A stretch of 64,000 nt of DNA from an uncultured Verrucomicrobiota bacterium (GCA_964631605.1 CAZVYG010000005.1:39858-103857), one strand, 5' to 3'. Positions 11,301 to 55,934 are shown, counted from the stretch's first letter. Translations and numbers: made by a program. The notes: generated by a model not told the origin, from the letters alone.

Positions 11301-11808
11301 GCGGAAGCTCGGCGCCCGGGCGCAGGGCGGCGGCGCGGATGCCAGCGCGCTGCTCGATGGCGACCCGAACACCTTTTGGAGCGCCGGGGGCGGCAGGCGC
11401 GGCGGCCCGGAACGTGGGCATCCACACGAAATCACCATCCAATTCCCCCAACCGGTCACCCTCGAGGGGGTGGTGCTGCTAAACCGTCAAAACGACCGCG
11501 ACCATCTGGGCGACATCCGCGCTTATCGGCTCGAAGGCGGTGACGACGGCGCGGCCTGGCGCGAAATCGCCGCCGGCGAACTGGCCTCCACCTGGAACCC
11601 GCAACGATTGAAATTCGGGACTTCTGTCACGGTGCGTTTTCTGAAGTTGACGGCCCTCTCCGGCTTTGGCGCCGATACCAGCGCCGCCCTCGCCGAGTTC
11701 GCCGTCCTGTACGCGGGCCCGCCCCTGCCAGAAACGCCCGGCGGCGCGCCCGAATATAAACGTTCCCGCAGCACGTCCACCGATGTGGACGAGGGGACTC
11801 CTCCGTGA
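8371..11808 (+). CDS. Glycoside hydrolase family 2 protein (beta-galactosidase-like) with C-terminal F5/8 type C (discoidin) domain
   Basis: GTG start with signal peptide MKPRRPLLVLVLAASLAPSAPA. GH2-type sugar-binding N-terminus: GAAWYQRDIEIP...RVELFLERT. TIM-barrel block: YGNHPSFVLMSASNEAKG. C-terminal discoidin-like segment: LLDGDPNTFWSAGG...ITIQFPQPVTLEGVVLLNRQ...FLKLTALSGF. Confidence 0.8.
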   Translation: MKPRRPLLVLVLAASLAPSAPAAPRPESASCSLAGVWRFALDRADVGIAQAWFGRSLPDRIQLPGVLQAQGYGDEISTNTPWVLSLYDKNWFLRDEYKAYSQPGTVKVPFLSQPPRHYLGAAWYQRDIEIPTHWLGRRVELFLERTRWETRAWLDHRLLGTNNSLCVPHLFEAGVVGDGPDQIKPGSHRLTVRVDNRMLMNYRADAHAVSDSLGSTWNGIVGRIELRSTPQVWVEEVRVQPDAARKSIAVSAILKKISGQRFAGKISYTIEAGPGAAKLSVPARSRNFKTDAASLELALEQDWPLGEQAQWWDEFSTPLYLLRLTLRGEPADSWPAFEQELTVPFGLRDFKALGQEFIVNGRPTHLRGTHHGGDFPLTGYPPCDVGYWLELWRTCKDWGLNHVRFHSFCPPEAAFEAADQAGIYLQIEPGMWNEISPGTAIEKMLYAETERILKAYGNHPSFVLMSASNEAKGRWKEALPRWVNVFRQKDPRRLYTPDTGWSLIDEPGPVEGADFLAVHRIGPNLLRGATAWFGRDYARSLRGVNVPVVSHELGQWCAYPDHSVISKFSGYLRPGNYEIFRDSLANHGLLDQNRELARASGRFQFLCYKEEIEANLRTPGLAGFQLLDLHDYLGQGTALVGLLDPFWESKNYASAPEFRRFCSPTVPLARLARRVFTTADRFEAPVEIAHYGPVPLTHAAVRWQIVNPANAVVLSGRWPAQTIAHGRTALPGAITADLANLPTPHAYRLVVSIEPESRPPDDPGRSLVALASFQPFENDWKFWLYPSRLEVPTPAEILVTTSWSEAAARLAAGDKVLFLPQTADLDWTCPPLDTVPVFWNRLMNPGWSRMLGLWCQARHPALAQFPTDAHCDWQWTELLRRARAINLDPLPRHLQPMVAAIDDWSRNHKLGLLFECKVGAGRLLVCSLDIQSDEASKPVASQLRRSLLAYMAGPQFEPAVTLSPAEVQGFLFDTRIMRKLGARAQGGGADASALLDGDPNTFWSAGGGRRGGPERGHPHEITIQFPQPVTLEGVVLLNRQNDRDHLGDIRAYRLEGGDDGAAWREIAAGELASTWNPQRLKFGTSVTVRFLKLTALSGFGADTSAALAEFAVLYAGPPLPETPGGAPEYKRSRSTSTDVDEGTPP

Positions 11809-13793
11809 TTATGCAAACCGCCAAATCCAGTCGTGTCATCCTGCTGGTTGCCCTGCTAACCGTCCGCGTCGGTTCCCCTGCCCCCGCAGCGAATGACAGC
11901 GCTCTCTCCCCCGTCGGCGAGCCGGCCCGGCCAACGGTCTTTCTGGTCGGAGACTCCACCGTGCGAAATGGGAGCGGCCGGGGGGAAAACGGCCTTTGGG
12001 GATGGGGCAGTTTTCTGGCCGCGCACTTTAACTTGACCCGGGTGCGCATCGAGAACCGCGCCCTGGGCGGCCGCAGCAGCCGCACCTTCATAACTGAAGG
12101 ACTCTGGGACAAAGTCGTTGCGGAACTGCAGCCGGGGGATTTTGTCCTCATTCAGTTCGGGCACAACGACGGCGGCGAACTGGCCAAAGGCGACCGGCCG
12201 CGCGCTTCGCTCAAGGGCGCCGGCGATGAGTCTCAGGAAGTCACTGTCGAGAAGACCGGTAAAAACGAAACCGTCCACACTTACGGCTGGTATCTGCGAA
12301 AATACATCTCCGACGCCAAAGCCCGGGGCGCCGCGCCCATCGTCTGCTCGCCGGTCCCGCGGAATCTTTGGCGCGAGGGCCGGGTGGTTCGAGCGTCAAA
12401 TGACTACGCCCAATGGGCCGCCGAGGCGGCGCGGGCCGGTGGCGCCTTTTTCATTGATCTGAACGAAATCATCGCCTGCCGCTACGAGCAAATGGGACAG
12501 CCGCGGGTTGCGGCGGAGTTTTTCACCGCGGCCGATCACACTCACACCACCCGGGCTGGGGCGGAGGCAAACGCCGCCGCGGTGGTGGAGGGCATCCAGG
12601 GCCTGGATGCCTGCCCCCTCCACGACCTCCTGCTGCCTGTGCGGAGATTCAGCTTCACCCTCAGTGAGGCGCCGCCGGGCTGCACGCCGGTCTCACCGCA
12701 AACCGCCTATGATCCCAGCCGGGGCTTTGGTTTTCTGAACAAAGAACCCGGCCGGTCGGACCAGCCGCCGGTGTTTGCCGTGAATGTCGAGGAAGGCAAT
12801 TACGAGGTGACGGTTCGCTTGGGCGATCCCGCGCGCGCCACCTGCACAACCCTCAGAGCCGAGTCGCGCCGCTTAATGATCGAGAACGTCCAAACCTCGC
12901 CGGGTCAGTTCGTCACCCGCGCTTTCACCGTCAATGTGCGAAAACCCGCCATCCGCACCGGCGGTACCACAATGCTCAATCAGCGCGAAAAAGGGCCGCC
13001 GCCGGTTCCGGACTGGGACGACTGCCTCACGCTCGAGTTCAACGGTCCCCATCCCGGAGTTGCCACACTCGAAATCAAGCCCGCCAACGATGCCGTCACA
13101 GTCTTCCTGGCCGGGGATTCCACGGTCACCGACCAGCCCAAAGAGCCCTACGCGGCTTGGGGCCAAATGCTGCCGCGGTTCTTCCAGCCGGGGGTGGCGG
13201 TGGCCAATCACGCCGAGTCCGGCCTGGCGCTCTTGTCCTTTGAACATCAGCGGCGCCTCGAAAAAATCCTGAGCACAATGAAGAAAGGGGACTACCTCTT
13301 GATTCAGTTCGGACACAACGATCAAAAGGACAAGCGCCCGGAAGCCGGCCCGTTTACAACCTATAAAGCCAGTCTCAAACGTTTCATCGAGGCGGCGCGC
13401 GCCAAGGGCGGCATCCCGGTGCTGGTTACCCCCATGGAGCGCCGCCGCTGGAAGGACAACCTGCCGCAAACCACCCTCGCCGATTACGCCGAAGCGGCCC
13501 GGCAGGCCGCCGCCGAGGAGCAAGTCCCCCTGATTGATCTTCACGCGATGAGCTTGAAGCTCTACGCCGCGCTCGGCCCCGAAGAATCCGCCAAAGTGTT
13601 TGTTCACTACCCGGCCAACACTTTCCCCGGGCAACCGCAAGCGCTGGAGGACGATACCCATCACAGCGCCTATGGCGCCTACGAATTGGCGCGGTGTGTC
13701 GTCGAAGGCATCAAGGCCCAAATCCCGGAGCTGGCGGCTCGCTTGGTCCATACCACATACCAATCGTCGCCGCCTCGGACCGAGGTTCCATGA
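11805..13793 (+). CDS. Tandem rhamnogalacturonan acetylesterase (two CE12 / SGNH-hydrolase domains separated by a beta-sandwich domain)
   Basis: Domain 1 has VFLVGDSTV, LGGRSSRTF, IQFGHNDGG and ADHTHTT. Domain 2 has VFLAGDSTV, IQFGHNDQKD and DDTHHSAYGA. The start is either GTG 11805 (GTGA overlap with the GH2 stop) or ATG 11811. Confidence 0.85.
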   Translation: MIMQTAKSSRVILLVALLTVRVGSPAPAANDSALSPVGEPARPTVFLVGDSTVRNGSGRGENGLWGWGSFLAAHFNLTRVRIENRALGGRSSRTFITEGLWDKVVAELQPGDFVLIQFGHNDGGELAKGDRPRASLKGAGDESQEVTVEKTGKNETVHTYGWYLRKYISDAKARGAAPIVCSPVPRNLWREGRVVRASNDYAQWAAEAARAGGAFFIDLNEIIACRYEQMGQPRVAAEFFTAADHTHTTRAGAEANAAAVVEGIQGLDACPLHDLLLPVRRFSFTLSEAPPGCTPVSPQTAYDPSRGFGFLNKEPGRSDQPPVFAVNVEEGNYEVTVRLGDPARATCTTLRAESRRLMIENVQTSPGQFVTRAFTVNVRKPAIRTGGTTMLNQREKGPPPVPDWDDCLTLEFNGPHPGVATLEIKPANDAVTVFLAGDSTVTDQPKEPYAAWGQMLPRFFQPGVAVANHAESGLALLSFEHQRRLEKILSTMKKGDYLLIQFGHNDQKDKRPEAGPFTTYKASLKRFIEAARAKGGIPVLVTPMERRRWKDNLPQTTLADYAEAARQAAAEEQVPLIDLHAMSLKLYAALGPEESAKVFVHYPANTFPGQPQALEDDTHHSAYGAYELARCVVEGIKAQIPELAARLVHTTYQSSPPRTEVP

Positions 13794-13956
13794 CACGCGT
13801 AACCGAACAGGATGGCCCGAACCGCGCCATTGGCGCCTTTGACCCGCAACACGGGCACGTCCCAATCCACCGGCCCGTCCGGGTTGTCGCCAAAGACAAC
13901 CTTGTCGCCCCGATAGACCCGCCGGTTCATCGCGAACGTCGCGCGCCCGCGCCCCC

Positions 13957-46329: not shown

Positions 46330-47442
46330 TTAGCGAGCACCGCGCAGGTCCCGCGACGTGGCCAGGGCGATGACCCGCCCTTCGCTCCCCACCGCGCAGT
46401 AGAAATGATAAACCACCCCCTCGTGTTTTAACACCCACGGCTTGTGGGCGTAGGTTTCATCCCACGGCTCCGACGGTTCCACCAAATGCGGGCCCTCCCA
46501 TCGGGTCCAGTGCACCAGATCGCGCGACACGGCGAACGTGTCAAACGCTTTGGGCTTCCAGCCGGCGCCGAAGTAGAACATGACCCAAAGGTCGTTCATC
46601 CGCACAATCTGGGGGTCGCCGCTGATCCCGTTCTGCCTGTCTTCGCCGTTGGCCAGGACACAGTTGGGGCCGAACCGCGACCAGTGCACCATGTCTTTGG
46701 ACAACGCCATGCCGATGCGCTCGTAGCCGTTCTTGACTTTGGCGTTGTAGAACATGACAAAAGGCGCGCCCAGCGACCGCGCGTCGTCGCGGATGATCGT
46801 GCTTTTATAGAGCGTCAGGCGCTCGAACTCGCGCACGTCCGGGTCACAGGGGGTCAGCACGGGGTTTTCTTTGGCGCGGCTCCACTCAACGGCTTGCGTC
46901 GGGTCTCGGGTCCAGGCGATCCCGATCGAGAGCGGGTCCGGTTCGTATCCCTGCCGGGCGCCGCCGAGGTAGGACATCCAGTATTTGCCTTTGTAGCGGC
47001 CCATGCCGGCGCTGCCTCCCCAGCGCGTGTCCACCAGCGCCGCGCCGCCATCCGCCTGCCAGGCGTCCCACCCCTTGCCGGCGAACGACAGAACCTTGCC
47101 CAATGTCCGCCAGTTCACCAAATCCTCACTGCGGGCCAGGAACGTTTCGTAGCCGATCTTGTCGGCAATGGCCACATACAGCATGTACCACGAGCCGTTG
47201 TGGCAAAACAGGCTGGGGCAGTCCACCATTTGGTTGGACGCGCCGCGAAGAACGATGCCGTATTTGTACGGCGTTCTGACTTCCCGATAAACGCGTTCCA
47301 TGGTGGCCGCGTCAATCGCCTCAGCGCCCGGGGCCTCCGCCGGCCGGAAGGCGGCCGCCAACACCAGCAGGAGGATGCGAACCAGACCCTGCGAAAAACA
47401 AATCCGCCGGCCTCGCGGCGAAATCGGCGTCGAGCTTTTCAT
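46330..47442 (-). CDS. Secreted five-bladed beta-propeller glycosidase-like protein (GH43/GH130-clan-like; exact family not resolved)
   Basis: ATG at 47442 gives a signal peptide (LVRILLLVLAAAFRPAEA). Repeated propeller-blade pattern: NGSWYMLYV...SEDLVNW; KYWMSYLG; FVMFYNA...SKDMVHW; LWVMFYFG...SRDLVHW; VVYHFYCAV. The family assignment is tentative. Confidence 0.5.
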   Translation of the reverse strand: MKSSTPISPRGRRICFSQGLVRILLLVLAAAFRPAEAPGAEAIDAATMERVYREVRTPYKYGIVLRGASNQMVDCPSLFCHNGSWYMLYVAIADKIGYETFLARSEDLVNWRTLGKVLSFAGKGWDAWQADGGAALVDTRWGGSAGMGRYKGKYWMSYLGGARQGYEPDPLSIGIAWTRDPTQAVEWSRAKENPVLTPCDPDVREFERLTLYKSTIIRDDARSLGAPFVMFYNAKVKNGYERIGMALSKDMVHWSRFGPNCVLANGEDRQNGISGDPQIVRMNDLWVMFYFGAGWKPKAFDTFAVSRDLVHWTRWEGPHLVEPSEPWDETYAHKPWVLKHEGVVYHFYCAVGSEGRVIALATSRDLRGAR

Positions 47443-47572
47443 GGCGGAAAGACAGCGCTCTGATTTTTCGCGGGAAGGTAGATTCCGCAGTGGGCGGCGG
47501 CAATCGCAAAAGCGGCGGCAAAAGCGGCGGGGGCAAGTCACGGCAGGTTTGACCTGGCGGACCAAACGGGCC

Positions 47573-48439
47573 ATGCTTGGGGTAATTCAAGAACGCATGG
47601 CCAATTCGAAGTCACGGCTGCATCTGCTGGAGCCCTCGCGGCGGGCCCGGCGCCTGTTTTGGCACATGCTCTCGATCGGGTCGGTGACGCTGGACGAGCC
47701 GGACACGCATCTGGGCATGGACAAACCGGGCGCGCATTTGTTCTGGGTGCAGTCCGGGGAGGGAACGCTGCAAGTGCCCGAGAAAGTGTTCGAGTTGCGC
47801 CCGGGCTCTCGCTGCTGGCTGGTGGACATGCGCAAGCCCCGGACCTACGCCCCGCTGCCCGGAAGGCGGCTGGTGAACACGGGGTTTCGTTTTCGCGGTC
47901 CCGAGCTGGAGGCGTGGTGCGAGGAGCTGGGGGACTCGCCCGAGTTTGTCCTGAGCGCGAGCGACTTCGAGGGCTTGCGCAAGACCTTCCGGCAGATGTT
48001 GGCGCTCGCCCGCCGCCGCGCGGAGGATTTTGAATGGCGGATTCATGTGCTGATCACGCAGGTGCTCGGGCGCCTTTTCAAAGCCCGCCATTTGCTGAGC
48101 GCGCCGCCGGTGGACATGCCCAAACCCCTCGCCCGGGCCATTGCCCTGGTCATGGCCGACCCCGCCCGCGACTGGCGGGTGCCGGAACTGGCCGATGCCG
48201 CCGGTTCGAGCCGGTCCGGCCTGCAACGGCTGTTCCGCGAGTTTCAAAAGGAGAGCATTCACGAGTTTCTCCAGCGCACGCGGCTGGACCAGGCCCGGCA
48301 ATTGCTTTGCGACGAGCGGCGTTCGATCAAGGAAGTCTCCGCCAAACTCAACTTCTCGAGCGAGTTCTATTTCAGCCGATTTTTCCGCAAACGGACCGGC
48401 ATGAGCCCCCGCCAGTTCCGCGAAAGCATCCAGGATTAG
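47573..48439 (+). CDS. AraC/XylS-family transcriptional regulator
   Basis: C-terminal double HTH: WRVPELADAAGSSRSGLQRLFREF ... IKEVSAKLNFSSEFYFSRFFRKRTGMSPRQFR. Start is ATG 47573 or 47597. The track ORF start at 47300 overlaps the divergent gene and was rejected. Confidence 0.85.
   Translation: MLGVIQERMANSKSRLHLLEPSRRARRLFWHMLSIGSVTLDEPDTHLGMDKPGAHLFWVQSGEGTLQVPEKVFELRPGSRCWLVDMRKPRTYAPLPGRRLVNTGFRFRGPELEAWCEELGDSPEFVLSASDFEGLRKTFRQMLALARRRAEDFEWRIHVLITQVLGRLFKARHLLSAPPVDMPKPLARAIALVMADPARDWRVPELADAAGSSRSGLQRLFREFQKESIHEFLQRTRLDQARQLLCDERRSIKEVSAKLNFSSEFYFSRFFRKRTGMSPRQFRESIQD
48386..48439 (+). repeat. Left copy of a 54-bp direct repeat (50 bp perfect), equal to the last 54 nt of the AraC gene including its stop
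   Basis: cgcaaacggaccggcatgagcccccgccagttccgcgaaagcatccagga(t)tag is repeated at 50680..50733 with a single t/c difference. Confidence 0.95.
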
Positions 48440-48445
48440 ATGCTC

Positions 48446-48505
48446 CACGGGCGGGACGCCCGTGCCACGGCTTGATGGTTTTGTGGCATGGGCATCCTGC
48501 CCATG
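48446..48505 (+). repeat. Pair of related perfect hairpins (REP-like palindromic units) at the island's left edge
   Basis: cacgggcg-gga-cgcccgtg (48446..48464) and catgggca-tcc-tgcccatg (48487..48505). Each has an 8-bp perfect stem and a 3-nt loop, and the two stems differ at 2 of 8 positions. Confidence 0.7.
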
Positions 48506-48567
48506 GGTTCCAATGGGCGGTGCGCCACTCCCGACATACAGGCAAAAGGCGCGTCGCGGCTGGCCAA

Positions 48568-49170
48568 TCAGCCATGAGGGCGACCCTGTTCATCAACCCC
48601 AAGGCCAACACCACCGTCAGCCTCGATGAGGGCTTTCCCACCCTGGCGAACTTGATCGCGCAGGGCCTCCAGCTCGCCGCCTGCGCTGACATGGATGAAG
48701 CACACCTTGTCGGCGATGGCGGCAACGACCTCGTTCCGACGTTTGGCCAGTTCGGCGGTGACGCGGCGGTGCTTGGCGCCGAACGGGGACAGCAGCAGCA
48801 GCCGTCCGCTTTCCAGGGGGCGCTTCCAGTCCCCAGGCACGCGCAGGTTGGTCAGGCTCCGGGCTGGGCAGATGATGATCGGCTGCTGGCCGCGCAACAG
48901 GATTCTCAGGCACTCCTTCTCAACCGGGGAGTGGAAGCCGCTGATGACCGTCACGCCCTCATCCCGTAGCTTCTTGGCCAGGTCGTATGCCTTGAGAATC
49001 AGGTCGCCGGGGCATCGGGCGGAGCAAAACAGGGCGAGCTTGTCGCCGCGCAGGAGCGCCGGATTGCCCAGCACCGACAGGCGCAAGGGAGTGTCGGGCA
49101 GCAGCGGTGTCCCGCCTGGCTTGACAAGGCCGAGTTCCGCCGCCGAAACCGTCGTCAACTCACTATACAT
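48568..49170 (-). CDS. Stand-alone DprA/Smf-like (SLOG-superfamily Rossmann) protein
   Basis: Collinear with the DprA Rossmann core: LALFCSARCPGDLILKAYDLAKKLRDEGVTVISGFHSPVEKECLRILLRGQQPIIICPARSL ... GRLLLLSPF ... RRNEVVAAIADKVCFIHVSAGG. It lacks the DprA N-terminal SAM and C-terminal wHTH extensions. Confidence 0.65.
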   Translation of the reverse strand: MYSELTTVSAAELGLVKPGGTPLLPDTPLRLSVLGNPALLRGDKLALFCSARCPGDLILKAYDLAKKLRDEGVTVISGFHSPVEKECLRILLRGQQPIIICPARSLTNLRVPGDWKRPLESGRLLLLSPFGAKHRRVTAELAKRRNEVVAAIADKVCFIHVSAGGELEALRDQVRQGGKALIEADGGVGLGVDEQGRPHG

Positions 49171-49396
49171 GGCTGTCCACTCTGCGGCTGAGGGTTCAGA
49201 CCAAAACGACTAAACTCCGGGACGTTCTCTGTGTCAATCAACCGGGCGTTCAGTTCCTTCACCGCATCCGACGACTGGACGACCCCCCTGTTGCGAGGCG
49301 GTTCTGAACCGACATTCGCGTCGTGGATCCCTTCTGCCGGAAGGTTGTTCAACCTCAAGGGTGGAGTGCCGATGGATGATTCCGAGCAGGCGAAAT

Positions 49397-49663
49397 CTAT
49401 GCGGGCGCCACATCCACGCGGGCGGAGAACCCAAGTTGACGCAGCAATTCCTCACAGTCTTCCCACGAAAGGCCAAAGGCACGCACGTCCGCAACCCCAA
49501 GCCGGGAGACCACCCTGGAGAGCGCCGGAGCATCCCCTTCCGAAAATTCTCCGTCCATCATCACGGTTTCGGCCCAATCCACCAACTGCGCCAGCGTCAT
49601 CTCATGGTGAAGATACGCGGCGATCTGGCTGGCCACGGTTTGTTTCGTGATCGTCATAGTCAT
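49397..49663 (-). CDS. Small hypothetical protein (88 aa), downstream member of a tightly spaced two-gene pair
   Basis: ATG-initiated ORF 3 nt after the stop of 49667..49903. Non-repetitive, acidic, helical-looking sequence: TLAQLVDWAETVMMDGEFSEGD...FGLSWEDCEELLRQLGF. No family recognised with confidence. Confidence 0.5.
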   Translation of the reverse strand: MTMTITKQTVASQIAAYLHHEMTLAQLVDWAETVMMDGEFSEGDAPALSRVVSRLGVADVRAFGLSWEDCEELLRQLGFSARVDVAPA

Positions 49664-49666
49664 AGC

Positions 49667-49903
49667 CTACACTTTCTGGTGCCCTTTATCCACCGGATAC
49701 TTTTCATGCACTTCGACCAGCCTGCCCTGTCCATCGTAGATTTCCTGCCAGAATCGAACGGTGGTTTCGTTTGCATCCACTTCCTTGAAATAACAGGCCA
49801 GCCACCCTTGCCGACCCCGAACGTCTTGCCGATAAAGCCGTCCACCGGCGGGCAATTGATCCCACCTCTCAAACTTCCTCTCGTTTTGCGCTCGCGTGCT
49901 CAT
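49667..49903 (-). CDS. Small hypothetical protein (78 aa), upstream member of the pair
   Basis: ATG-initiated ORF with a basic, beta-rich-looking sequence: [55 protein letters not shown]. The pairing resembles a toxin-antitoxin layout, but no family was recognised. Confidence 0.45.
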
Positions 49904-50378
49904 TCCTCCTCATCTCGATTGGCATCGCTGTTTGTGCCATACTTGATGCCAGGCGTCCTGAAATCCACTCTTTTTTCCGCAACCAGCGCGAGCAGCCACC
50001 CTCGTGCCGCTTCGCTAACGCCAGGCGGCGCAATGCGGCCTCGTCGTCGTTGGTGGGAACGCCAAACGTGAGCTGGGCGCGAAATTCCTCGGCCAAGCGT
50101 TTCTTCAACCGGATCGCAGTCTGGTTGTCGAGGTTGCCATCCTGCTTGACCAGGCTGAAGAAGTCGCGCAACTCCTCCTGGGGCAATCGTTGCATCCCGA
50201 CCAGGAGCCGACACTGGTGCCCCGGCCCGCCGGGCCACGGCTCGATGAATGAATCCAGCGCCTTCCAGCCGCGCAGATTGAAGTAGCCGACGCAGAAGTC
50301 AGACCGCTCCGACAGTTGCAGCGTCTGCTCCAAGGCTGGCAGCAGGCTGGCTTCAATGTTATCGAAAATCCTCGGCAT
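49869..50378 (-). pseudogene. Truncated N-terminal fragment of a PLD-nuclease-domain / SNF2-type helicase (restriction/defence-associated family)
   Basis: The first ~118 aa ([48 protein letters not shown]...[19 protein letters not shown]...[33 protein letters not shown]) match the conserved N-terminus of >1000-aa PLD-helicase proteins as I recall them. The ORF then degenerates and stops before the HxK PLD motif, and it overlaps the next small gene. Confidence 0.6.
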
Positions 50379-50679
50379 GGGGTGTTACGGGTTCGGCGCC
50401 AGCGCCTGGCGGCGGAGGCGGATGATAACCTCTTTTGATGACTTTTTGGTCGCCATAAATCACTGGCACGCGAAGCACTTGTGCCGAGGATTTGTAGGGA
50501 CAATGGTGACCCGGGTCAATCCTGGACTCCTGGATTTCCCGCGCGGCTTTCGATTTGCGGGAGGCCGCCGGGTGGTGCTTGGCGAACCGCCTGCCGGTTT
50601 TCAAGGAAGGCCGGGCCGCGCGCGGCGCATGACCGGATCAAGCCTCTGATTCGAAAACGATTCAGGCTGGGAACTCAGA

Positions 50680-50733
50680 CGCAAACGGACCGGCATGAGC
50701 CCCCGCCAGTTCCGCGAAAGCATCCAGGACTAG
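50680..50733 (+). repeat. Right copy of the 54-bp direct repeat (orphan duplicate of the AraC 3' end)
   Basis: See 48386..48439. Upstream of this copy the AraC reading frame hits a stop at 50647-50649 and similarity to the AraC gene is lost immediately 5' of the repeat, so it is a fragment and not a second gene. Confidence 0.95.
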
Positions 50734-50913
50734 CCCCCGCCGCCGCAGACCGTTTTCACAAAACATTGGGCCGGTTTGTCCATGTCCCTTTGGCCCGGTT
50801 CGGGAGAAGTTGAGTGCGTGTCCAGAAGCCGAAAGCCACCGGCCGGCCTGATGCCGGGTCGAAGGTGAAGGGCGGCCGCGGGAATGAACGGCTCGCCGGA
50901 TTCTGGATGGTGA

Positions 50914-52185
50914 ATGAACACGGGTCTGCACCTGCCAGTTGATCAAGGCGTGGGTTTGCCGAATCGTGCCGCTCCGGCTGAAGTTCCGGCCTGGAGTGAG
51001 CCCGGCCGGCATGTCCAGGGCGCAGCCGTCTGCCCGGAAATCAAGCCGATCACCCTTCGGCACCCCGGGCGAATCGCTTTCGGCAGAGGCTCGAGTCTCG
51101 AGCTGGCCGCCAGCCTCGCCGAGCGCGGGGTACGGAGACCTTTCGTTGTGCTTGACCCCGAAGCGCGCGAGGCTGCCCGCCCGGCGCTGGAGCAGCTCCA
51201 AGCCGCCGGGATGGAGCTCTCCATTTGCGACGGCATTGACCGGGAGCCCACCGTCGCGATGTTCGAGGCCTGCCTTGCGCGCGCGCGCGGGGCGGCTCCG
51301 GATGGGGTCGTGGGGATCGGGGGCGGCAGCGCGATGGATGTGGCCAAGCTGGCGGCCGCGCTGCTCGACAGCGGGCAATCCGTCGCCGAGGTTTTCGGCC
51401 TCAACACCCTGCGCCGGCGCAAGACGTTTCTGGCCTGTGTTCCCACCACCGCCGGCACGGGCAGCGAAGTTTCCCCCAACGCCATTCTGCTGGAGCCATC
51501 CAGCCATTTGAAAAAAGGCGTGATCAGCCCGCACCTGGTGCCAGACGTGGCGTGTGTGGACCCGCTGTTGACGTTGTCGGTGCCACCCTCGACAACGGCG
51601 GCCACGGGACTGGACGCGTTGACTCACTGCATCGAAGCGTATGCGAACCGGTTTGCGCACCCGATCGTGGACCTCTACGCGATCCAAGGCATCACCCTGA
51701 TTTCCGCAAGCCTGGCGGCCGCTGTGGAGAACGGAAAGGACGTGGGGGCCAGGACGCGCCTGGCGCTGGGCAGCCTCTACGGTGGGCTTTGTCTCGGGCC
51801 GGTCAACACGGCCGCGGTGCATGCGCTGGCCTATCCCTTGGGCAGCCGGTTCGGGGTGCCACATGGATTGTCCAACGCCCTGCTGCTGCCTCATGTCTTG
51901 CGGTTCAACCTGCCGTCGGCCGTCGAGCGCTACGCTCAAGTGGCGCTGGCGCTGGGAGCTTCGCCCGCCGACACCCCGTCAGCCACGGCTGAACGGGGCC
52001 TCGACCGCCTCGACCGGCTCCTGGCGCATTGCCCCATCCCCCGCCGGTTGTCCGCGCTGGGAGTTCCCCGCGAGGCCCTGCCCGAGCTGGCGGCGGCGGC
52101 AATGACCGTTACCCGGCTCCTCAAGAACAACCCCCGTCCGGTTTCCGAGCCGGACGCACTGGAGATTTACCATGCCGCGTGGTGA
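50914..52185 (+). CDS. Iron-containing (group III) alcohol dehydrogenase family oxidoreductase
   Basis: GIGGGSAMDVAKLAA, VPTTAGTGSEVS, GLDALTHCIEAY, AVHALAYPLG..FGVPHGLSNALLLPHV. The start is uncertain: ATG 50914, or internal GTG 50950 / TTG 50956. Confidence 0.85.
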   Translation: MNTGLHLPVDQGVGLPNRAAPAEVPAWSEPGRHVQGAAVCPEIKPITLRHPGRIAFGRGSSLELAASLAERGVRRPFVVLDPEAREAARPALEQLQAAGMELSICDGIDREPTVAMFEACLARARGAAPDGVVGIGGGSAMDVAKLAAALLDSGQSVAEVFGLNTLRRRKTFLACVPTTAGTGSEVSPNAILLEPSSHLKKGVISPHLVPDVACVDPLLTLSVPPSTTAATGLDALTHCIEAYANRFAHPIVDLYAIQGITLISASLAAAVENGKDVGARTRLALGSLYGGLCLGPVNTAAVHALAYPLGSRFGVPHGLSNALLLPHVLRFNLPSAVERYAQVALALGASPADTPSATAERGLDRLDRLLAHCPIPRRLSALGVPREALPELAAAAMTVTRLLKNNPRPVSEPDALEIYHAAW

Positions 52186-53206
52186 CCCGGGAGCTTCCAA
52201 TCCCCGCGAGCACCGGGGCGTAATCGTTCCCATGGTGACCCCGGTCACGGCGGAGGGCATGCTGGATGAAGCGGCCGCCGGGCGGATTTTGGATTATCTC
52301 GCCGCAGGGGGCGTGCATGGTGTGTTCCTCTTTGGCACGACCGGGGAAGGCCCCAACATTCCCAAGGCGGTCCGCGACCGCCTGGTGCGGCTGGCCCTCG
52401 AGCGGGTTGACGGGCGGCTCCTGGTTTACGCGGGCATCAGCTCGGACAGCCTGCCGGAGTCGGTCGCGGCGGGAAACGATTACCTGCGGCTGGGCGTGGA
52501 CGCCGTGGTTGCGCATGTGCCCGGGCATTTCGAGAAGAATCCCCAGGCGGCCCTCAGTTTCTATGCGGACCTCGCGCACCAATTGGAGGGGGGATTGATC
52601 CTGTACAACATGCCGCTGACGACCAATGTGTCGCTGCCGATCGAGTTGTGCAAAACCACCGCCTGCCGGCCGCGGGTGATCGGAATCAAAGACTCCGAAA
52701 ACGACCTCGAACGGATGGTCGAGCTGCTGCGGGAACTGGGCGGCAAGCAGGATTTTTCAGTCTTTATCGGCACCGGGCCGTTGATGGCCAAGGGCCTGCT
52801 GCTGGGCGCCGAAGGGATTGTCCCCAGTGTGGGCAACCTGGCGCCGGCCTTGTGCCGGAAAATGTATGATTCCGCCGTTGGCGGCAACGCGGTCGAGGCC
52901 GAAAAGCTGCACTTGGAAATCATGGGCATCGCGGCGATTTACCAAGAGGGCCGCAAGCTCGAGGAATCGCTGGCGGCCTTAAAAGCGGCGATGTCGTGGC
53001 TCGGCCTTTGCCGCGCCTACACGCTGCCTCCCCTCCAGCCGTTGTCGCAATTCGAGTCGCTGCTGCTGCGTGACAAATTGGCCGCAATGGGTTTTCCTGT
53101 CCGGGACAGGCCTCCGGATGAGATGCAAGAAACCAACTGGCAGGGTCCCGGCCGGCGCGGCTGGAGTCGGGCCGCCGCGGCGCCCTCAAGCCCCCAGCAA
53201 GCCTGA
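52172..53206 (+). CDS. DapA/N-acetylneuraminate-lyase-family class I aldolase (substrate unknown)
   Basis: GVIVPMVTP, FLFGTTGEG (GTTGE motif), YNMP, and the Schiff-base lysine context VIGIKDS. 14-nt overlap with the Fe-ADH gene. Confidence 0.8.
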   Translation: MPRGDPGASNPREHRGVIVPMVTPVTAEGMLDEAAAGRILDYLAAGGVHGVFLFGTTGEGPNIPKAVRDRLVRLALERVDGRLLVYAGISSDSLPESVAAGNDYLRLGVDAVVAHVPGHFEKNPQAALSFYADLAHQLEGGLILYNMPLTTNVSLPIELCKTTACRPRVIGIKDSENDLERMVELLRELGGKQDFSVFIGTGPLMAKGLLLGAEGIVPSVGNLAPALCRKMYDSAVGGNAVEAEKLHLEIMGIAAIYQEGRKLEESLAALKAAMSWLGLCRAYTLPPLQPLSQFESLLLRDKLAAMGFPVRDRPPDEMQETNWQGPGRRGWSRAAAAPSSPQQA

Positions 53207-53290
53207 CCTTTTCAGTTTCAGCCCAAGCCAACCTTGGGCCCCGCGCATGTTGCCAGCGGCAAGCTGCGCCGCTTTTGCAGGCGCCCCCCT

Positions 53291-54439
53291 ATGATTGCTG
53301 TGATTGCCGACGATTTGAGCGGAGCCACCGAACTGGCGGGGGTCGGCTGGCGTTTTGGCCTCACGACGGAGATTCTGGCCTGGCCCGAGCCGGTTTCCAC
53401 CGCCGAGCTGGTGGTTTACGACACTGACTCACGGCTCAGGCGACCCATTCAAGCAGCCCGATGCGCCGGCCGAGTGGCGCTCAAGCTCCGCCGAGCAAAG
53501 GCGGAATGGGTTTACAAGAAGGTGGATTCGGTCTTGCGGGGGAACGTCCTGGCTGAAATCCAGGCCATCTGCTTTCGTTTGAAGCTGCAGGGTTGTTTGT
53601 TGGCGCCCGCCAACCCGCAAGCCGGACGCATCATTCGGCAAGGCAGGTACTTCATCAACGGCGTCCCCCTTAACCACACCGACTTTCGTCGCGACCCGGT
53701 TCATCCGCGTCGCTCGTGCCGGGTGAAGCAACTCCTGGATCCCACCGGCCGGCGCGCGATCCGGCTCCTGAACCCGGGGACCAGGGAACTGCCTCCAGGC
53801 CTCGCGGTCGGCCAGGCGGCCACTGCCGCTGACCTTCGTCATTGGGCCGGCTTGGTCACTCCCGCAACACTCCCGGCGGGGGGAGCCGAATTCTTTCGGG
53901 CGCTGCTGACCGCCCGAGGATTGGTCCCGCGCCACCTTCCCGCGGAACCGGCTCCCCAGGCGCGCCGCACCCTGTTTGTCTGCGGCAGCATTTCCGCCCG
54001 GTCCCTGGAATTCATCGAGGCTTCTCGCAAAAGGAACTGGCCGGTTGTGCTGATGCCGCCGGAGGTCATTGCGGGTAAGGCCGCCCCAGCGGCCCAGCGG
54101 GCCTGGACCTGCGGCATTTGTGCCGCCCTGCCACAGCATCGCCACGTGTTGCTGGGGATTGGCCCGCCGGTTAACCCCGGGAGGCGGGCGGGCGCCCGTC
54201 TGGGCAATCTTTTGGTTGACGCCGCCCGGGAAGTGCTGATGCGGTGCGCCCCGGACCGGGTGTGCATCGAGGGCGGAGCCACGGCGGTTTTGCTTCTCCG
54301 GCGCCTGGGGGTCACGCGCTTGCGGGTCGAGCACGACTTCGCCATGGGCGTCACGGCCGTTCGGGCTGCGAACGGCGCCGGACCCCAAATCGTGGTCAAG
54401 CCGGGGAGTTATCCGTGGCCGGCGTCTCTGCTGGCTTAG
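53291..54439 (+). CDS. Four-carbon acid-sugar kinase family protein (DUF1537; OtnK/DtnK/OiaK-like)
   Basis: The ATG at 53291 gives the family-typical N-terminus MIAVIADDLSGATELAG. Further motifs: YKKVDSVLRGN, APANPQAGR. The C-terminal nucleotide-binding half contains CIEGGATA. Confidence 0.8.
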   Translation: MIAVIADDLSGATELAGVGWRFGLTTEILAWPEPVSTAELVVYDTDSRLRRPIQAARCAGRVALKLRRAKAEWVYKKVDSVLRGNVLAEIQAICFRLKLQGCLLAPANPQAGRIIRQGRYFINGVPLNHTDFRRDPVHPRRSCRVKQLLDPTGRRAIRLLNPGTRELPPGLAVGQAATAADLRHWAGLVTPATLPAGGAEFFRALLTARGLVPRHLPAEPAPQARRTLFVCGSISARSLEFIEASRKRNWPVVLMPPEVIAGKAAPAAQRAWTCGICAALPQHRHVLLGIGPPVNPGRRAGARLGNLLVDAAREVLMRCAPDRVCIEGGATAVLLLRRLGVTRLRVEHDFAMGVTAVRAANGAGPQIVVKPGSYPWPASLLA

Positions 54440-55934
54440 GGTGGGCGCCCGGCCGGCGTGCAAACCATAGGCTGGCCAGATAGCCCACGATCAATAGGAT
54501 GAGGTGATTCAGAATCCCGATTAGGAACGGGTGCCAGCGGTAGTTGAATGGCCCCAGATCGAGCAGCACGGTATTGAGGGCCGGCAACTGCACGGAGGTC
54601 AGCGTGGCCCAGGCCGTGAACAGGATGCACGCGACAATCCCGACAACCGCGCCCCGCCCGTTGGCGCGGCGGGTGAGGGCGCCCAGGGCGAACAGCCCAA
54701 GCATGCCCGCGGTGGCAATCGAGAACAACTGAACCCCCAATTCAAGAGCCGTACCGATTCCAATCCAGAGCTGGGAGAACAGGATGGCCAGGACGCCGAG
54801 AACGCCCACAACGATGCGTCCCGTCCACAGCCGCTGCCCGTCCGTGGCCTCGGGCCGCAGCCGCCCAAAGTAATCCTCCACGATCACCGTGGCCATGCTG
54901 TTGAGGTCGGAATCCAGGCTGGACATGGCGGCGGCGACCAGGGCGGCCACCACCAGACCGATCAGCCCCACCGGGAGCTGGGTCTTGATGAAATACGGAA
55001 CAATGTTGTCCTTGACCCGCACCACTTCCGGCGGCAGTGCCTGGCCCGTCACTTGAAAGAAGCCCCACAGGCAGGCGCCCAGCAGAAAGAACAGCAGCCA
55101 GATCGGCAAACAGGAGACCGCCCCGACGAAGGCGCTCATCCGCGCCTCGCGGTCAGTCGCGGCGACCAGGTATTTTTGGACGATGTGCTGATCCAGCGCA
55201 TATCGTTGCACCGCCCAGATGGCGCCGCCCACAACCAGGAACCAGCCGTTCATCTCGACCAGGCTGAAGGACCACTGGCCCAGCCCGAACTTCCCCCCCT
55301 CCCAAGCCGCCGTGAGCACGCCCCCAACTCCGGACGGCGGACGGAACAGGGCGATGCCCAGGCAGACCAGCGCGCCGGCGACCAGCAACAGACCCTGTAG
55401 CACATCCGCATAGACCACGGCCGCAATGCCGCCAGCCACGGTCATCGCCACCGTCACCAACCCCACGATGAGAATGACCCACCACACGTCATAACCGCTG
55501 AGATACGACACCGGCACTGCCAGAAAGTAAAGTGTGGCGCTCATGTCCACCACCCGGCTGACGATAAAGGCCGCGGCCCCGTAGGCCCGGGCGCCGTAGT
55601 TGAACCGCCGCTCGAGGTAATCGTAAATGCTCATCCGCACCGTGCGGCGGTAAAAGACCACGATGTGCCGCGCCACGAAGAGCATGACCACCGGCAACAT
55701 GAGAAAGGACGGCAGATTCCACATGTCGCGGGCAAACACGTTCCCCGGGTGGCCGACGAAGCTGGTGCTGCTGATCATCGTCCCCACGATCGCAAAGATC
55801 ACCACCCAGCCCGGCACCTTCCGACCCGCCAGAAAATAGTCCTCGGTGGTTTTCTGGTGGCGCGAGAAATAGATCCCAATCCCAAAAACGGCGGCGAGGT
55901 AAACCAAAACAATGATGGAATCCAGCAGGGTCAT
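54396..55934 (-). CDS. Sodium:solute symporter (SSS family)
   Basis: YFLAGRKVPGWVVIFAIVGTMISSTSFVG and about 13 TM segments. Convergent with the kinase gene, with a 44-nt 3' overlap. Confidence 0.88.
   Translation of the reverse strand: MTLLDSIIVLVYLAAVFGIGIYFSRHQKTTEDYFLAGRKVPGWVVIFAIVGTMISSTSFVGHPGNVFARDMWNLPSFLMLPVVMLFVARHIVVFYRRTVRMSIYDYLERRFNYGARAYGAAAFIVSRVVDMSATLYFLAVPVSYLSGYDVWWVILIVGLVTVAMTVAGGIAAVVYADVLQGLLLVAGALVCLGIALFRPPSGVGGVLTAAWEGGKFGLGQWSFSLVEMNGWFLVVGGAIWAVQRYALDQHIVQKYLVAATDREARMSAFVGAVSCLPIWLLFFLLGACLWGFFQVTGQALPPEVVRVKDNIVPYFIKTQLPVGLIGLVVAALVAAAMSSLDSDLNSMATVIVEDYFGRLRPEATDGQRLWTGRIVVGVLGVLAILFSQLWIGIGTALELGVQLFSIATAGMLGLFALGALTRRANGRGAVVGIVACILFTAWATLTSVQLPALNTVLLDLGPFNYRWHPFLIGILNHLILLIVGYLASLWFARRPGAHPKPAETPATDNSPA

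Follow-up and report, generated by a model that had tools for sequence, protein, structure and literature searches.

The window analysed here is a 64-kb stretch of DNA from an uncultured Verrucomicrobiota bacterium, in which a gene for an AraC-family regulator and a gene cluster starting with an Fe-dependent alcohol dehydrogenase (Fe-ADH) are separated by an island bounded by two copies of the regulator's 3' end. The features of the locus, numbered from the first nucleotide of the window, are the following:

47597-48439, plus strand: AraC-family regulator, 280 aa, intact (Pfam HTH_18 6e-21, HTH_AraC 1e-14, weak AraC_binding)
48386-48439, plus strand: left direct repeat (DR-L), attL-like; comprises the final 17 codons of AraC with TAG and ends in GAT TAG
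48445-48506, no strand: 62-nt palindrome of two REP-like units, between the convergent AraC and DprA-like genes
48568-49170, minus strand: DprA-like (PsyrA-like) protein, 200 aa, apparently intact; last gene of the parent defence operon described below
49397-49663, minus strand: 88-aa ORF without family match, second of a tightly coupled gene pair
49667-49903, minus strand: 78-aa ORF, first of the pair, with the lowest GC of the island (0.54)
49904-50019, no strand: 116-nt segment joining the gene pair to the deletion breakpoint, without a match in any locus
50020-50378, minus strand: remnant of an HKD/PLD-SNF2 helicase-nuclease gene, codons 1-120, truncated ahead of the catalytic HxK motif
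50379-50679, no strand: right arm, 301 nt, non-coding, with flat codon-position GC in six frames
50680-50733, plus strand: right direct repeat (DR-R), attR-like; the AraC 3' end in a second copy that is displaced and non-coding and ends in GAC TAG
50734-50787, plus strand: native intergenic sequence by alignment with relatives; a 19-nt spacer and an operator/promoter-like motif, TTTTCACAA-N13-GGTTTGTCCATGTCC (50753-50787)
50914-52185, plus strand: Fe-ADH, first gene of the cluster (Pfam, synteny)
52172-53206, downstream of Fe-ADH: DHDPS-family aldolase (Pfam)
53234-54439, after the aldolase: four-carbon acid sugar kinase-like gene (Pfam)
54396-55934, minus strand: SSF transporter (Pfam)

The AraC gene is also called at 280 aa in the JGI assemblies, and its product is 96% identical over the full length to that of the closest relative, L008. 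An earlier sequence-only reading had pointed out that the final 54 nt of this gene recur with one mismatch, and the two segments are indeed a direct repeat with 53 of 54 positions identical and 50 bp perfect. The perfect 50-nt core occurs twice in the whole window, where the repeat is present nowhere else, and it was matched in none of 100 dinucleotide-preserving shuffles; the 54-bp repeat is confirmed as real and non-random. The sole mismatch, at repeat position 51, is synonymous (GAT on the left, GAC on the right). Identity starts abruptly at 48386/50680 and ends exactly with the final base of the stop codon, and no dyad symmetry of 5 nt or more was found within the 54 bp. The in-frame stop reported upstream of the second copy is present in the frame +1 translation, although not at the nine codons first given: it occupies 50647-50649 and is the 11th codon upstream, separated from the copy by 10 sense codons, with no usable start codon.

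The arrangement was reproduced in other assemblies. Three of them (JGI 3300037501, 3300043177 and 3300037465) run across both repeats with the same order and the same single mismatch, the left junction was also found in a fourth (JGI 3300043267), and identity to the window is 99.97% or more in all four. An assembly artefact, that is, a chimeric join or duplicated reads, could draw on the Logan contig L003, which starts exactly at the repeat boundary (48440) and so indicates that the repeat breaks the k=31 graph, but the three independent assemblies bridge both repeats with an identical mismatch, and 54 bp is shorter than the read length. For a transposon whose target-site duplication would be unusually long, the difficulty is that no transposase was found and that 54 bp compares with the short duplications expected (2-15 bp). 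The island ends, inverted, are no more alike than shuffled sequence, and this lack of terminal inverted repeats, together with a duplication far longer than known transposon target duplications, argues against transposition. Artefact and transposon are extremely improbable explanations and can be taken as effectively refuted.

The AraC gene usually adjoins the Fe-ADH/DHDPS/kinase cluster (about 45 loci), which bears out the proposal that the island separates the two. The suggested search of relatives for an empty site was successful in four related lineages (L074, L009, L174 and L175), where the order is AraC stop, a spacer of 17-23 nt, the conserved operator-like motif and Fe-ADH. Because these lineages have an uninterrupted site, the 2,240 bp between the copies are an insertion. 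DR-R and the right flank are native AraC-end and intergenic sequence, the 19-20 nt from DR-R to the conserved motif being native spacing (17-23 nt at the empty sites). DR-R ends in GAC TAG like L008, and this shared state fits DR-R as the displaced original. The 7 nt following DR-L (ATGCTCC) were considered as ancestral sequence that would move the insertion point, and were rejected since the spacing from DR-R to the motif already equals that of the empty sites. With the operator-like motif and the Fe-ADH cluster intact downstream, regulation of the cluster in trans by AraC should be unaffected by the island.

DR-L and DR-R are 98% alike, whereas AraC orthologues over the same stretch reach 93% in the closest relative. 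Both copies carry all four differences that separate the window strain from L008, so that an element-borne copy must stem from the same lineage. This higher copy-to-copy likeness would fit a lineage-resident element or an in-situ duplication equally well. According to the latter, which we consider unlikely, foreign DNA was captured illegitimately at a fragile position directly behind the AraC stop and the 54 bp became duplicated in the process, double-strand-break repair or replication template switching having re-copied the 54 nt with neither att site nor integrase. It agrees with copies that are each other's nearest relatives, one base apart, but under it the repeat would end exactly with the stop codon's final base by coincidence, and we know of no bacterial mechanism that yields regular 54-bp target duplications.

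Two further lineages (L008/L172 and L176/L177) carry unrelated inserts, without repeats, at the same post-stop point. Three lineages thereby have unrelated inserts starting at the same base: the 54-bp-flanked defence wreck of the window, a toxin-antitoxin-like pair, and a 105-nt palindromic element. A relationship between the window island and the L008 insert was rejected, as no similarity beyond chance was found. In-situ duplication gains from the independent strikes at this point in the two other lineages, and also from the long palindromes, which are known fragile sites, that both the window and L176 have directly behind the stop codon; against it, neither of the other two inserts produced a duplication. 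Since their positions coincide exactly with that of the island, the point is a recurrent landing site. A stronger form of this, in which cassettes without an integrase would specifically and repeatedly use the junction after the AraC stop through an unrecognised targeting mechanism, is highly doubtful. Targeting might then depend on hairpin-directed insertion or on a recombinase, chromosomal or acting in trans, with specificity for the conserved HTH coding motif of the AraC family (FRKRTGMSPRQFR); either way, the defence cassette would be cis-mobilizable, with the 54-bp repeats as its working att sites. In any case, this small intergenic spot, variously filled by lineage, merits a study of its own.

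Between the repeat copies, the 2,240 nt (48440-50679) contain ORFs on the minus strand only, the ORF map agreeing with the earlier description. The island has a GC content of 0.611 against 0.639 for the window, a comparison that had been proposed beforehand, and falls in the lowest 6% of equal-sized windows. Both cargo ends are 88% identical in nucleotides to the ends of an operon at an unrelated locus (L093), and since these are its nearest relatives, the cargo is foreign to the flanks, as had been claimed. Judged by these matches, it is the foreign, mosaic remains of a three-gene restriction-modification-like operon. The parent operon, defined in full in L093 and also found in L104, L139, L141, L157 and others, codes for an HKD/PLD-SNF2 helicase-nuclease (1,147 aa at full length in L093; PADLOC 'HKD+Snf2' 8e-47, DrmD 2e-33), an Eco57I/type-IIG-like N6-adenine methyltransferase (type-IIG/PglX-like, PADLOC 2e-169), a DprA-like protein and a small guest gene pair, with NCBIfam scores all far under the curated cut-offs. 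About 8 kb of it has been lost from the island, including the helicase-nuclease body after codon 120 and the whole methyltransferase gene; the DprA-like gene, helicase codons 1-120 and the embedded toxin-antitoxin-like pair are still present. The view of a decayed element with a truncated cargo gene is upheld by these losses, and neither a full-length HKD/SNF2 helicase-nuclease nor a methyltransferase was found in the window island.

'Type-2 BREX-related' systems have an HKD-nuclease and Swi2/Snf2 helicase effector with an N6-adenine methyltransferase (PMC12839542). The L093 operon resembles these and class 1 DISARM DrmD/DrmMI in its HKD/PLD-SNF2 helicase and methyltransferase, while its third core gene is DprA-like in place of DUF499/DUF3780, DrmA/B or PglZ. 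This three-gene operon is widespread and apparently unnamed, and would also merit separate study. The full L093-type operons elsewhere have no flanking repeats, and most have no nearby recombinase. In L141, a large serine recombinase, a type that leaves no long repeats, lies 1.2 kb downstream. A 52-nt 'repeat' around the full operon of L104 turned out to be sequence of an RHS/YD-repeat gene.

The DprA-like gene is 88% identical in nucleotides to L093 10034-10427 and has at least 362 metagenome relatives. Its product matches Pfam DNA_processg_A at 9e-7, under the curated cut-off, and PADLOC PsyrA at 1.9e-16, the latter over model positions 115-265 of 398, which correspond to the Rossmann-like core only. 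In PsyrTA/RqlHI, a RecQ-like helicase is restrained by a DprA-like partner (PMC4670107). The 200-aa protein recalls this system through its match to PsyrA and through a parent-operon partner that is a potentially genotoxic helicase-nuclease; unlike in PsyrTA, the partner is an SNF2 and not a RecQ helicase and is deleted in the window, and no RecQ-like gene was found beside the DprA-like gene. The adjacent 88-aa/78-aa pair is conserved in L109 upstream of a DprA-like gene (70% aa identity) and sits where L093 has MNT/HepT. Neither protein matched Pfam, PADLOC or NCBIfam, nor plasmids by tblastn; we infer the pair to be a putative toxin-antitoxin-like guest module.

For the segment 49904-50019, no blastn or tblastx match was obtained in any locus. 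Nucleotide homology to L093, L088, L171, L104 and others breaks off at 50019/50020, and the ORF 49869-50378 runs from the helicase remnant on into 49 unrelated codons. Every alignment of the remnant to its 1,917 homologues is limited to residues 1 to about 120. As many homologues are 119-145 aa long and diverge at that point, codon ~120 of the PLD-helicase gene was considered as a possible recombination hotspot; this was rejected because the list of the top 120 favours the shortest proteins covering the alignable 120 aa, many of them on short contigs. The first 23 nt of the right arm match the upstream region of the L093 helicase gene, whereas no relatives were found for the remainder (50402-50679), and coding signature, Pfam and tblastx gave no integrase remnant or other gene in 50379-50679. 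Rfam gave no match over 47000-52000, right arm included, no tRNA genes were found in the window, and sigma-70-like promoters and intrinsic terminators over 48300-51000 were not above chance. Such a patchwork of fragments, joined by segments without known relatives (49904-50019, 50402-50679), is again in line with in-situ capture.

No recombinase domain was found in the island ORFs or arms, no integrase or recombinase elsewhere in the 64-kb window, and no integrase in the JGI Pfam calls over 37.6-62.2 kb, as the sequence-only reading had stated for this element. The longer, integrase-carrying version that it had anticipated did not appear: neither an integrase-bearing element nor a second, repeat-forming AraC-end copy was found at any of 75 AraC loci, and the att-like sequence occurred in no viral contigs, the search for an autonomous element being confined to a single metagenome scan and to one genome for each species. 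Contigs with identical AraC or Fe-ADH proteins all carry the island. Thus, of the original proposal, insertion stands on the empty site of four lineages, while a site-specific integrase as its agent was not borne out by these searches. The missing integrase-bearing relative also favours in-situ duplication, and it agrees with RecA-mediated homologous Campbell integration of a circle containing host-derived AraC sequence, which would give site-specific topology with no integrase. The circle would have carried either exactly 54 bp after imprecise excision of a post-stop insert, for which L008-type inserts starting exactly after the stop codon could be the seed, or a longer stretch of AraC, cut back to 54 bp by a later deletion that also removed part of the island; deletions have clearly reshaped the island, and the copies are near-identical, synonymous sites included. 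Nevertheless, this route is rather improbable. Imprecise excision, transfer to a sibling with an empty site and recombination on only 54 bp would all be required, each of them a rare event, and no empty-site sibling or longer AraC duplicate was found among the contigs with identical AraC/Fe-ADH proteins.

The explanation that we favour, by a little better than an even chance, is that the island is a non-autonomous remnant of an integrated element, a circular element with a 54-bp AraC-end copy having recombined into the chromosome. We infer, rather than observe, recombination across this copy. The element would have carried the last 17 AraC codons and the stop as its attachment site and recombined with the chromosomal AraC 3' end in a Campbell-type integration. 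A site-specific tyrosine recombinase would be the most likely enzyme; it would have come either from a gene of the element that has since been lost by deletion, or in trans. Integration would have made AraC whole again, with a chromosomal 5' part and a 3' part brought by the element (left copy, GAT TAG), displacing the original 3' end (right copy, GAC TAG) to the far side. The end of the repeat at the stop codon is accounted for, since the element-borne copy would be kept only to rebuild the ORF. After excision, the predicted empty-site junction is ...GCATCCAGGAYTAG joined to CCCCCGCCGCCGCAGACC, and in the predicted circle ...GGCTGGGAACTCAGA is followed by the 54 bp and then ATGCTCCACGGGCGG.

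Prophage e14 and phage 21 in icd of E. coli, as well as tRNA-gene genomic islands, insert in the 3' end of a gene and rebuild it. The island shares with them repeats that copy the target 3' end, a whole ORF (AraC), a displaced partial copy at the far end, an empty site in relatives with a single copy, and foreign cargo. In contrast, no integrase was found inside the island, by either repeat or nearby, its size is only 2.2 kb, its repeat is near-identical even synonymously, and no sister element using the site was found. CIMEs are att-flanked ICE/IME remnants without recombination genes that rely on the integrase of a related element. ICEberg 2.0 (PMC6323972) lists such elements, and PMC5704250 gives a review of them. 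Like them, the island is small and decayed, has att-like repeats at a gene 3' end and contains no integrase, excisionase or transfer genes. It differs in that no cognate integrase element is known for its site, none that is autonomous having been found at the same att site within the search scope, so that mobilisation in cis or in trans is hypothetical, and in that the host is an uncultured Verrucomicrobiota and not one of the Firmicutes. Today the island cannot move by its own means, and its repeats could support excision via a trans-acting integrase or RecA.

The island is a real and fairly ordinary scar of gene insertion and decay. It illustrates the entry of a defence island beside a regulator gene without breaking the regulator, and decay in which restriction and modification were lost together. 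It is also a dated, well-bounded example in Verrucomicrobiota, for which, to our knowledge, there are almost no characterised mobile elements.

The 62-nt palindrome next to DR-L has a minimum free energy of -48.4 kcal/mol, with z-scores of -4.5 on the plus strand and -5.4 on the minus strand. Its REP-like unit, CAYGGGC-N5-GCCCRTGCCAC, is found at 48446-48464 and 48487-48505, the only two copies in the window, and the palindrome is probably a bidirectional terminator without T-tract or a miniature repeat element. A perfect 24-nt match of 48446-48469 to the helicase ORF of L088-L090 was rejected as a helicase remnant because it is a palindromic REP-like unit, paired in both places in differing arrangements. 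The same REP-like units are present in L088-L090 and also in L026.

The final 17 codons and stop of the AraC-family gene (48386-48439, CGCAAACGGACCGGCATGAGCCCCCGCCAGTTCCGCGAAAGCATCCAGGATTAG) recur at 50680-50733 with a single synonymous difference, GAT to GAC, as the sequence-only reading had proposed; the sequence comparison and shuffled controls support this. The 50-nt perfect core is present twice in the 64 kb and in none of 100 dinucleotide-preserving shuffles. Identity between the copies starts abruptly at 48386/50680 and breaks off at the final nucleotide of the stop. No AraC homology was found 5' of the second copy, again as proposed, while the in-frame stop upstream of it lies at the 11th codon (50647-50649) and not at the ninth, a trivial correction. 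The repeated stretch encodes the final part of the second helix-turn-helix and is hence required for AraC function.

Features of the insertion region (window coordinates)
47597-48439, plus strand, AraC-family gene, 280 aa (Pfam HTH_18 6e-21, HTH_AraC 1e-14)
48445-48506, 62-nt palindrome directly 3' of the left repeat, two REP-like units (-48 kcal/mol, z about -5)
48568-49170, minus strand, DprA-like protein, 200 aa (Pfam DNA_processg_A 9e-7, below cut-off; PADLOC PsyrA 1.9e-16)
49397-49663, minus strand, 88-aa ORF, tightly coupled with the 78-aa ORF, no family match
49667-49903, minus strand, 78-aa ORF, no family match
49869-50378, minus strand, 169-aa ORF, helicase fragment (1,917 homologous database proteins, alignable over the first 120 residues alone)

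Exact-protein look-ups recovered an identical arrangement, with both repeats spanned, in three JGI metagenomes assembled independently of one another (3300037501, with the source contig Ga0394875_0000423; 3300043177; and 3300037465). A fourth (3300043267) has the left junction, and a Logan assembly covers the interior of the island. Every one of these matches the window at 99.97% identity or more, with the same mismatch between copies, and the 54-bp repeat is shorter than one read, so the concern that the repeat was an assembly artefact was not borne out. The island has no terminal inverted repeats. An artefact or a transposon is hardly credible as an explanation.

The AraC protein scan, with one genome per species, gave 80 loci, nearly all from Verrucomicrobiota (Limisphaerales, Pedosphaera, 'subdivision 3'). 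AraC adjoins a cluster of Fe-ADH, DHDPS-family aldolase, four-carbon acid sugar kinase-like and SSF transporter genes in about 45 of them, and the order AraC then Fe-ADH is common to the window and its closest relatives, in agreement with the earlier view that the island parts the regulator from this cluster. The predicted empty site was found in four lineages (L074, L009, L174 and L175, with 79%, 75%, 83% and 79% aa identity), where the AraC stop is followed by a GC-rich spacer of 17-23 nt, the conserved motif TTTTCACAA-N13-GGTTTGTCCATGTCC and then Fe-ADH. In the window, spacer and motif come after the second repeat copy at native spacing (50734-50787), therefore giving the structure X-D-[2,240 bp]-D-Y. 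Judged from these alignments, the 2,240 bp between the copies (48440-50679) are an insertion. Across 75 AraC loci, no AraC gene has its 3' end duplicated.

Every island ORF is on the minus strand, as first read. Residues 1-120 of the 169-aa ORF correspond to the N-terminus of HKD/PLD-SNF2 helicases and divergence starts just before the HxK motif; the DNA alignment to every relative ends at 50019/50020. The nearest relative of the cargo, L093, is 88% nt identical to both island ends and carries a full operon (L093:1224-10465) with an HKD/PLD-SNF2 helicase (1,147 aa), a YhcG-type PD-(D/E)XK nuclease, an Eco57I/type-IIG-like methyltransferase (813 aa; PADLOC REase_MTase_IIG 2e-169), a 196-aa protein, MNT and HepT, and the DprA-like protein. 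The island is thus the two ends of a restriction-modification-like operon from which about 8 kb is gone, including the helicase body and methyltransferase, and the suspected truncated, decayed cargo was confirmed. Joint loss of these two is the non-lethal route for losing such a system. The 78/88-aa pair also lies 5' of a DprA-like gene in L109 (69-70% aa) and occupies the slot held by MNT/HepT in L093, from which a putative toxin-antitoxin-like guest module is inferred. Between the 88-aa and DprA-like genes, a 67-aa ORF (49155-49358, minus strand) has coding-like GC by codon position (0.59/0.47/0.68) and may be a remnant of the gene 5' of DprA-like in the parent operon; nucleotide homology to L091/L092 continues for 47 nt on the 5' side of the DprA-like start.

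Scanning metagenomes with the DprA-like protein gave at least 362 relatives, of which the best 80 were taken as loci, and brought the parent system to light. The helicase/methyltransferase/DprA-like core, with 7-9 kb spacing, is also found in L099, L104, L110, L115, L139, L141 and L157-L159, and the methyltransferase/DprA-like pair in about 30 shorter contigs. Decayed copies are seen elsewhere, with 181 helicase codons (L142) or a methyltransferase C-terminal stub (L091/L092) followed by the DprA-like gene. No named defence system matched this core above curated cut-offs, and the widespread trio may be an undescribed restriction-modification-like defence system. Guest genes between methyltransferase and DprA-like gene vary (MNT/HepT, YhcG nuclease, 78/88-aa pair). 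In L104, the full operon lies between RHS/YD-repeat toxin gene segments (L104:1-1200, 10515-13860); a Hint-domain C-terminal tip and a putative immunity gene lie downstream. No repeats bound full-length operon copies elsewhere, and most have no recombinase nearby; the sole one seen is a 515-aa large serine recombinase (Resolvase and Recombinase domains; L141:10255-11802), encoded 1.2 kb downstream of where a full operon ends with its DprA-like gene.

The island deviates only mildly in composition: the difference from the flanks that was looked for is present, with a GC of 0.611, where the window as a whole has 0.639 (lowest 6% among segments of equal size), and a tetranucleotide distance in the top 7%. 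As the sequence-only reading had noted for integrases, no recombinase domain was detected in the island, its arms or any gene-like ORF of the window, including JGI Pfam calls. The window has no tRNA gene, and the rest of it is an unremarkable stretch of pectin/CAZyme and housekeeping genes; no Rfam family was found over 47000-52000. The right arm (50379-50679, 301 nt) does not code for protein, and only its first 23 nt have relatives.

On balance, the island is probably the remnant of a site-specific element. The topology is that left when a circle integrates by a single crossover within a shared sequence of 54 bp, here the AraC 3' end; this would have happened through a site-specific recombinase, the element-borne copy being kept only as far as the ORF is rebuilt. 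The right copy (GAC) would be the displaced original, and the left (GAT) would now end the working AraC gene. A site-specific recombinase is favoured because identity ends exactly at the stop codon and the AraC gene is intact; a third route, RecA-mediated Campbell integration through a segment of host origin, or the trimming of a duplication that was once larger, is distinctly unlikely. The mismatch fits the element model, since the GAC of L008, the closest relative lineage, stands in the displaced copy and the odd state in the working gene. Against the element model, both copies share all four differences that part this strain from L008 in this stretch, so the 'element' copy must stem from this very lineage, which is possible for a resident element cycling in and out. 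An in-situ 54-bp duplication during illegitimate capture at a fragile site, which we consider somewhat unlikely, accounts equally well for these shared differences. Some other explanation takes the remaining probability. The proposed integration with reconstitution of the gene end stands as regards the insertion, the intact AraC and the repeat end at the stop, but neither an integrase nor a sister element was found in its support.

Insertions exactly after the AraC stop were seen in three of seven sampled lineages. In the closest (L008/L172/L173; AraC identity 96% aa, 88% nt), another insert, 1.03 kb long (L008:3493-4526), starts at the same base. Its two ORFs, 183 and 66 aa, are both on the minus strand, and PADLOC gives the 183-aa one a weak PD-T4-9_A match. 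This insert is a toxin-antitoxin-like pair, with no flanking repeat and no similarity to the island; in L172 a frameshift cuts its 183-aa ORF to 113 aa. An MNT/HEPN toxin-antitoxin pair also lies directly upstream of AraC (L172:549-1280, and the corresponding region of L008), and the AraC of this lineage therefore has small toxin-antitoxin-type inserts on both sides. L176/L177 (80% aa) carry a GGTTGAA/TTCAACC palindromic element of about 105 nt at the same point (L176:5427-5535), with the native spacer kept to its right and no flanking repeats.

The island works like a 3'-end-targeting integrative element and its present state resembles a CIME. Neither a defining integrase nor a cognate one elsewhere was found when tested for, and the island is thus classed as a remnant and not as a member. 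The more interesting leads are peripheral, namely the unnamed helicase/methyltransferase/DprA-like operon and the spot behind the AraC stop where inserts have landed repeatedly. The parent system has lost its defence function in the window. The DprA-like gene and the 78/88-aa pair seem undamaged, and their expression may continue. Trans regulation of the Fe-ADH cluster should survive, because AraC is undamaged and the cluster keeps its operator-like motif; the sole loss would be read-through from AraC.

The motif (50753-50787) precedes Fe-ADH in each of the seven lineages sampled, probably as the AraC operator or promoter. The 3' half of the motif is reverse-complementary at 16 of 17 positions to 47713-47729, inside the AraC coding region (LGMDKPG), which may be chance or regulatory pairing. 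The REP-like unit, CAYGGGC-N5-GCCCRTGCCAC, is paired after AraC, forming the 62-nt palindrome, and has no other copies in the window. The same units are also found in-frame within a helicase ORF of L088-L090 (L088:7866-7950) in the opposite relative arrangement, and their presence in both contexts suggests a small mobile palindromic repeat family. In addition, a PdxA-family dehydrogenase gene, which lies between the DHDPS-family aldolase and kinase genes in most relatives (L074, L174:4993-5967, L175:6445-7434), is missing from the window (53206-53234) and the L008 lineage, a clade in which the pathway cluster has been remodelled.
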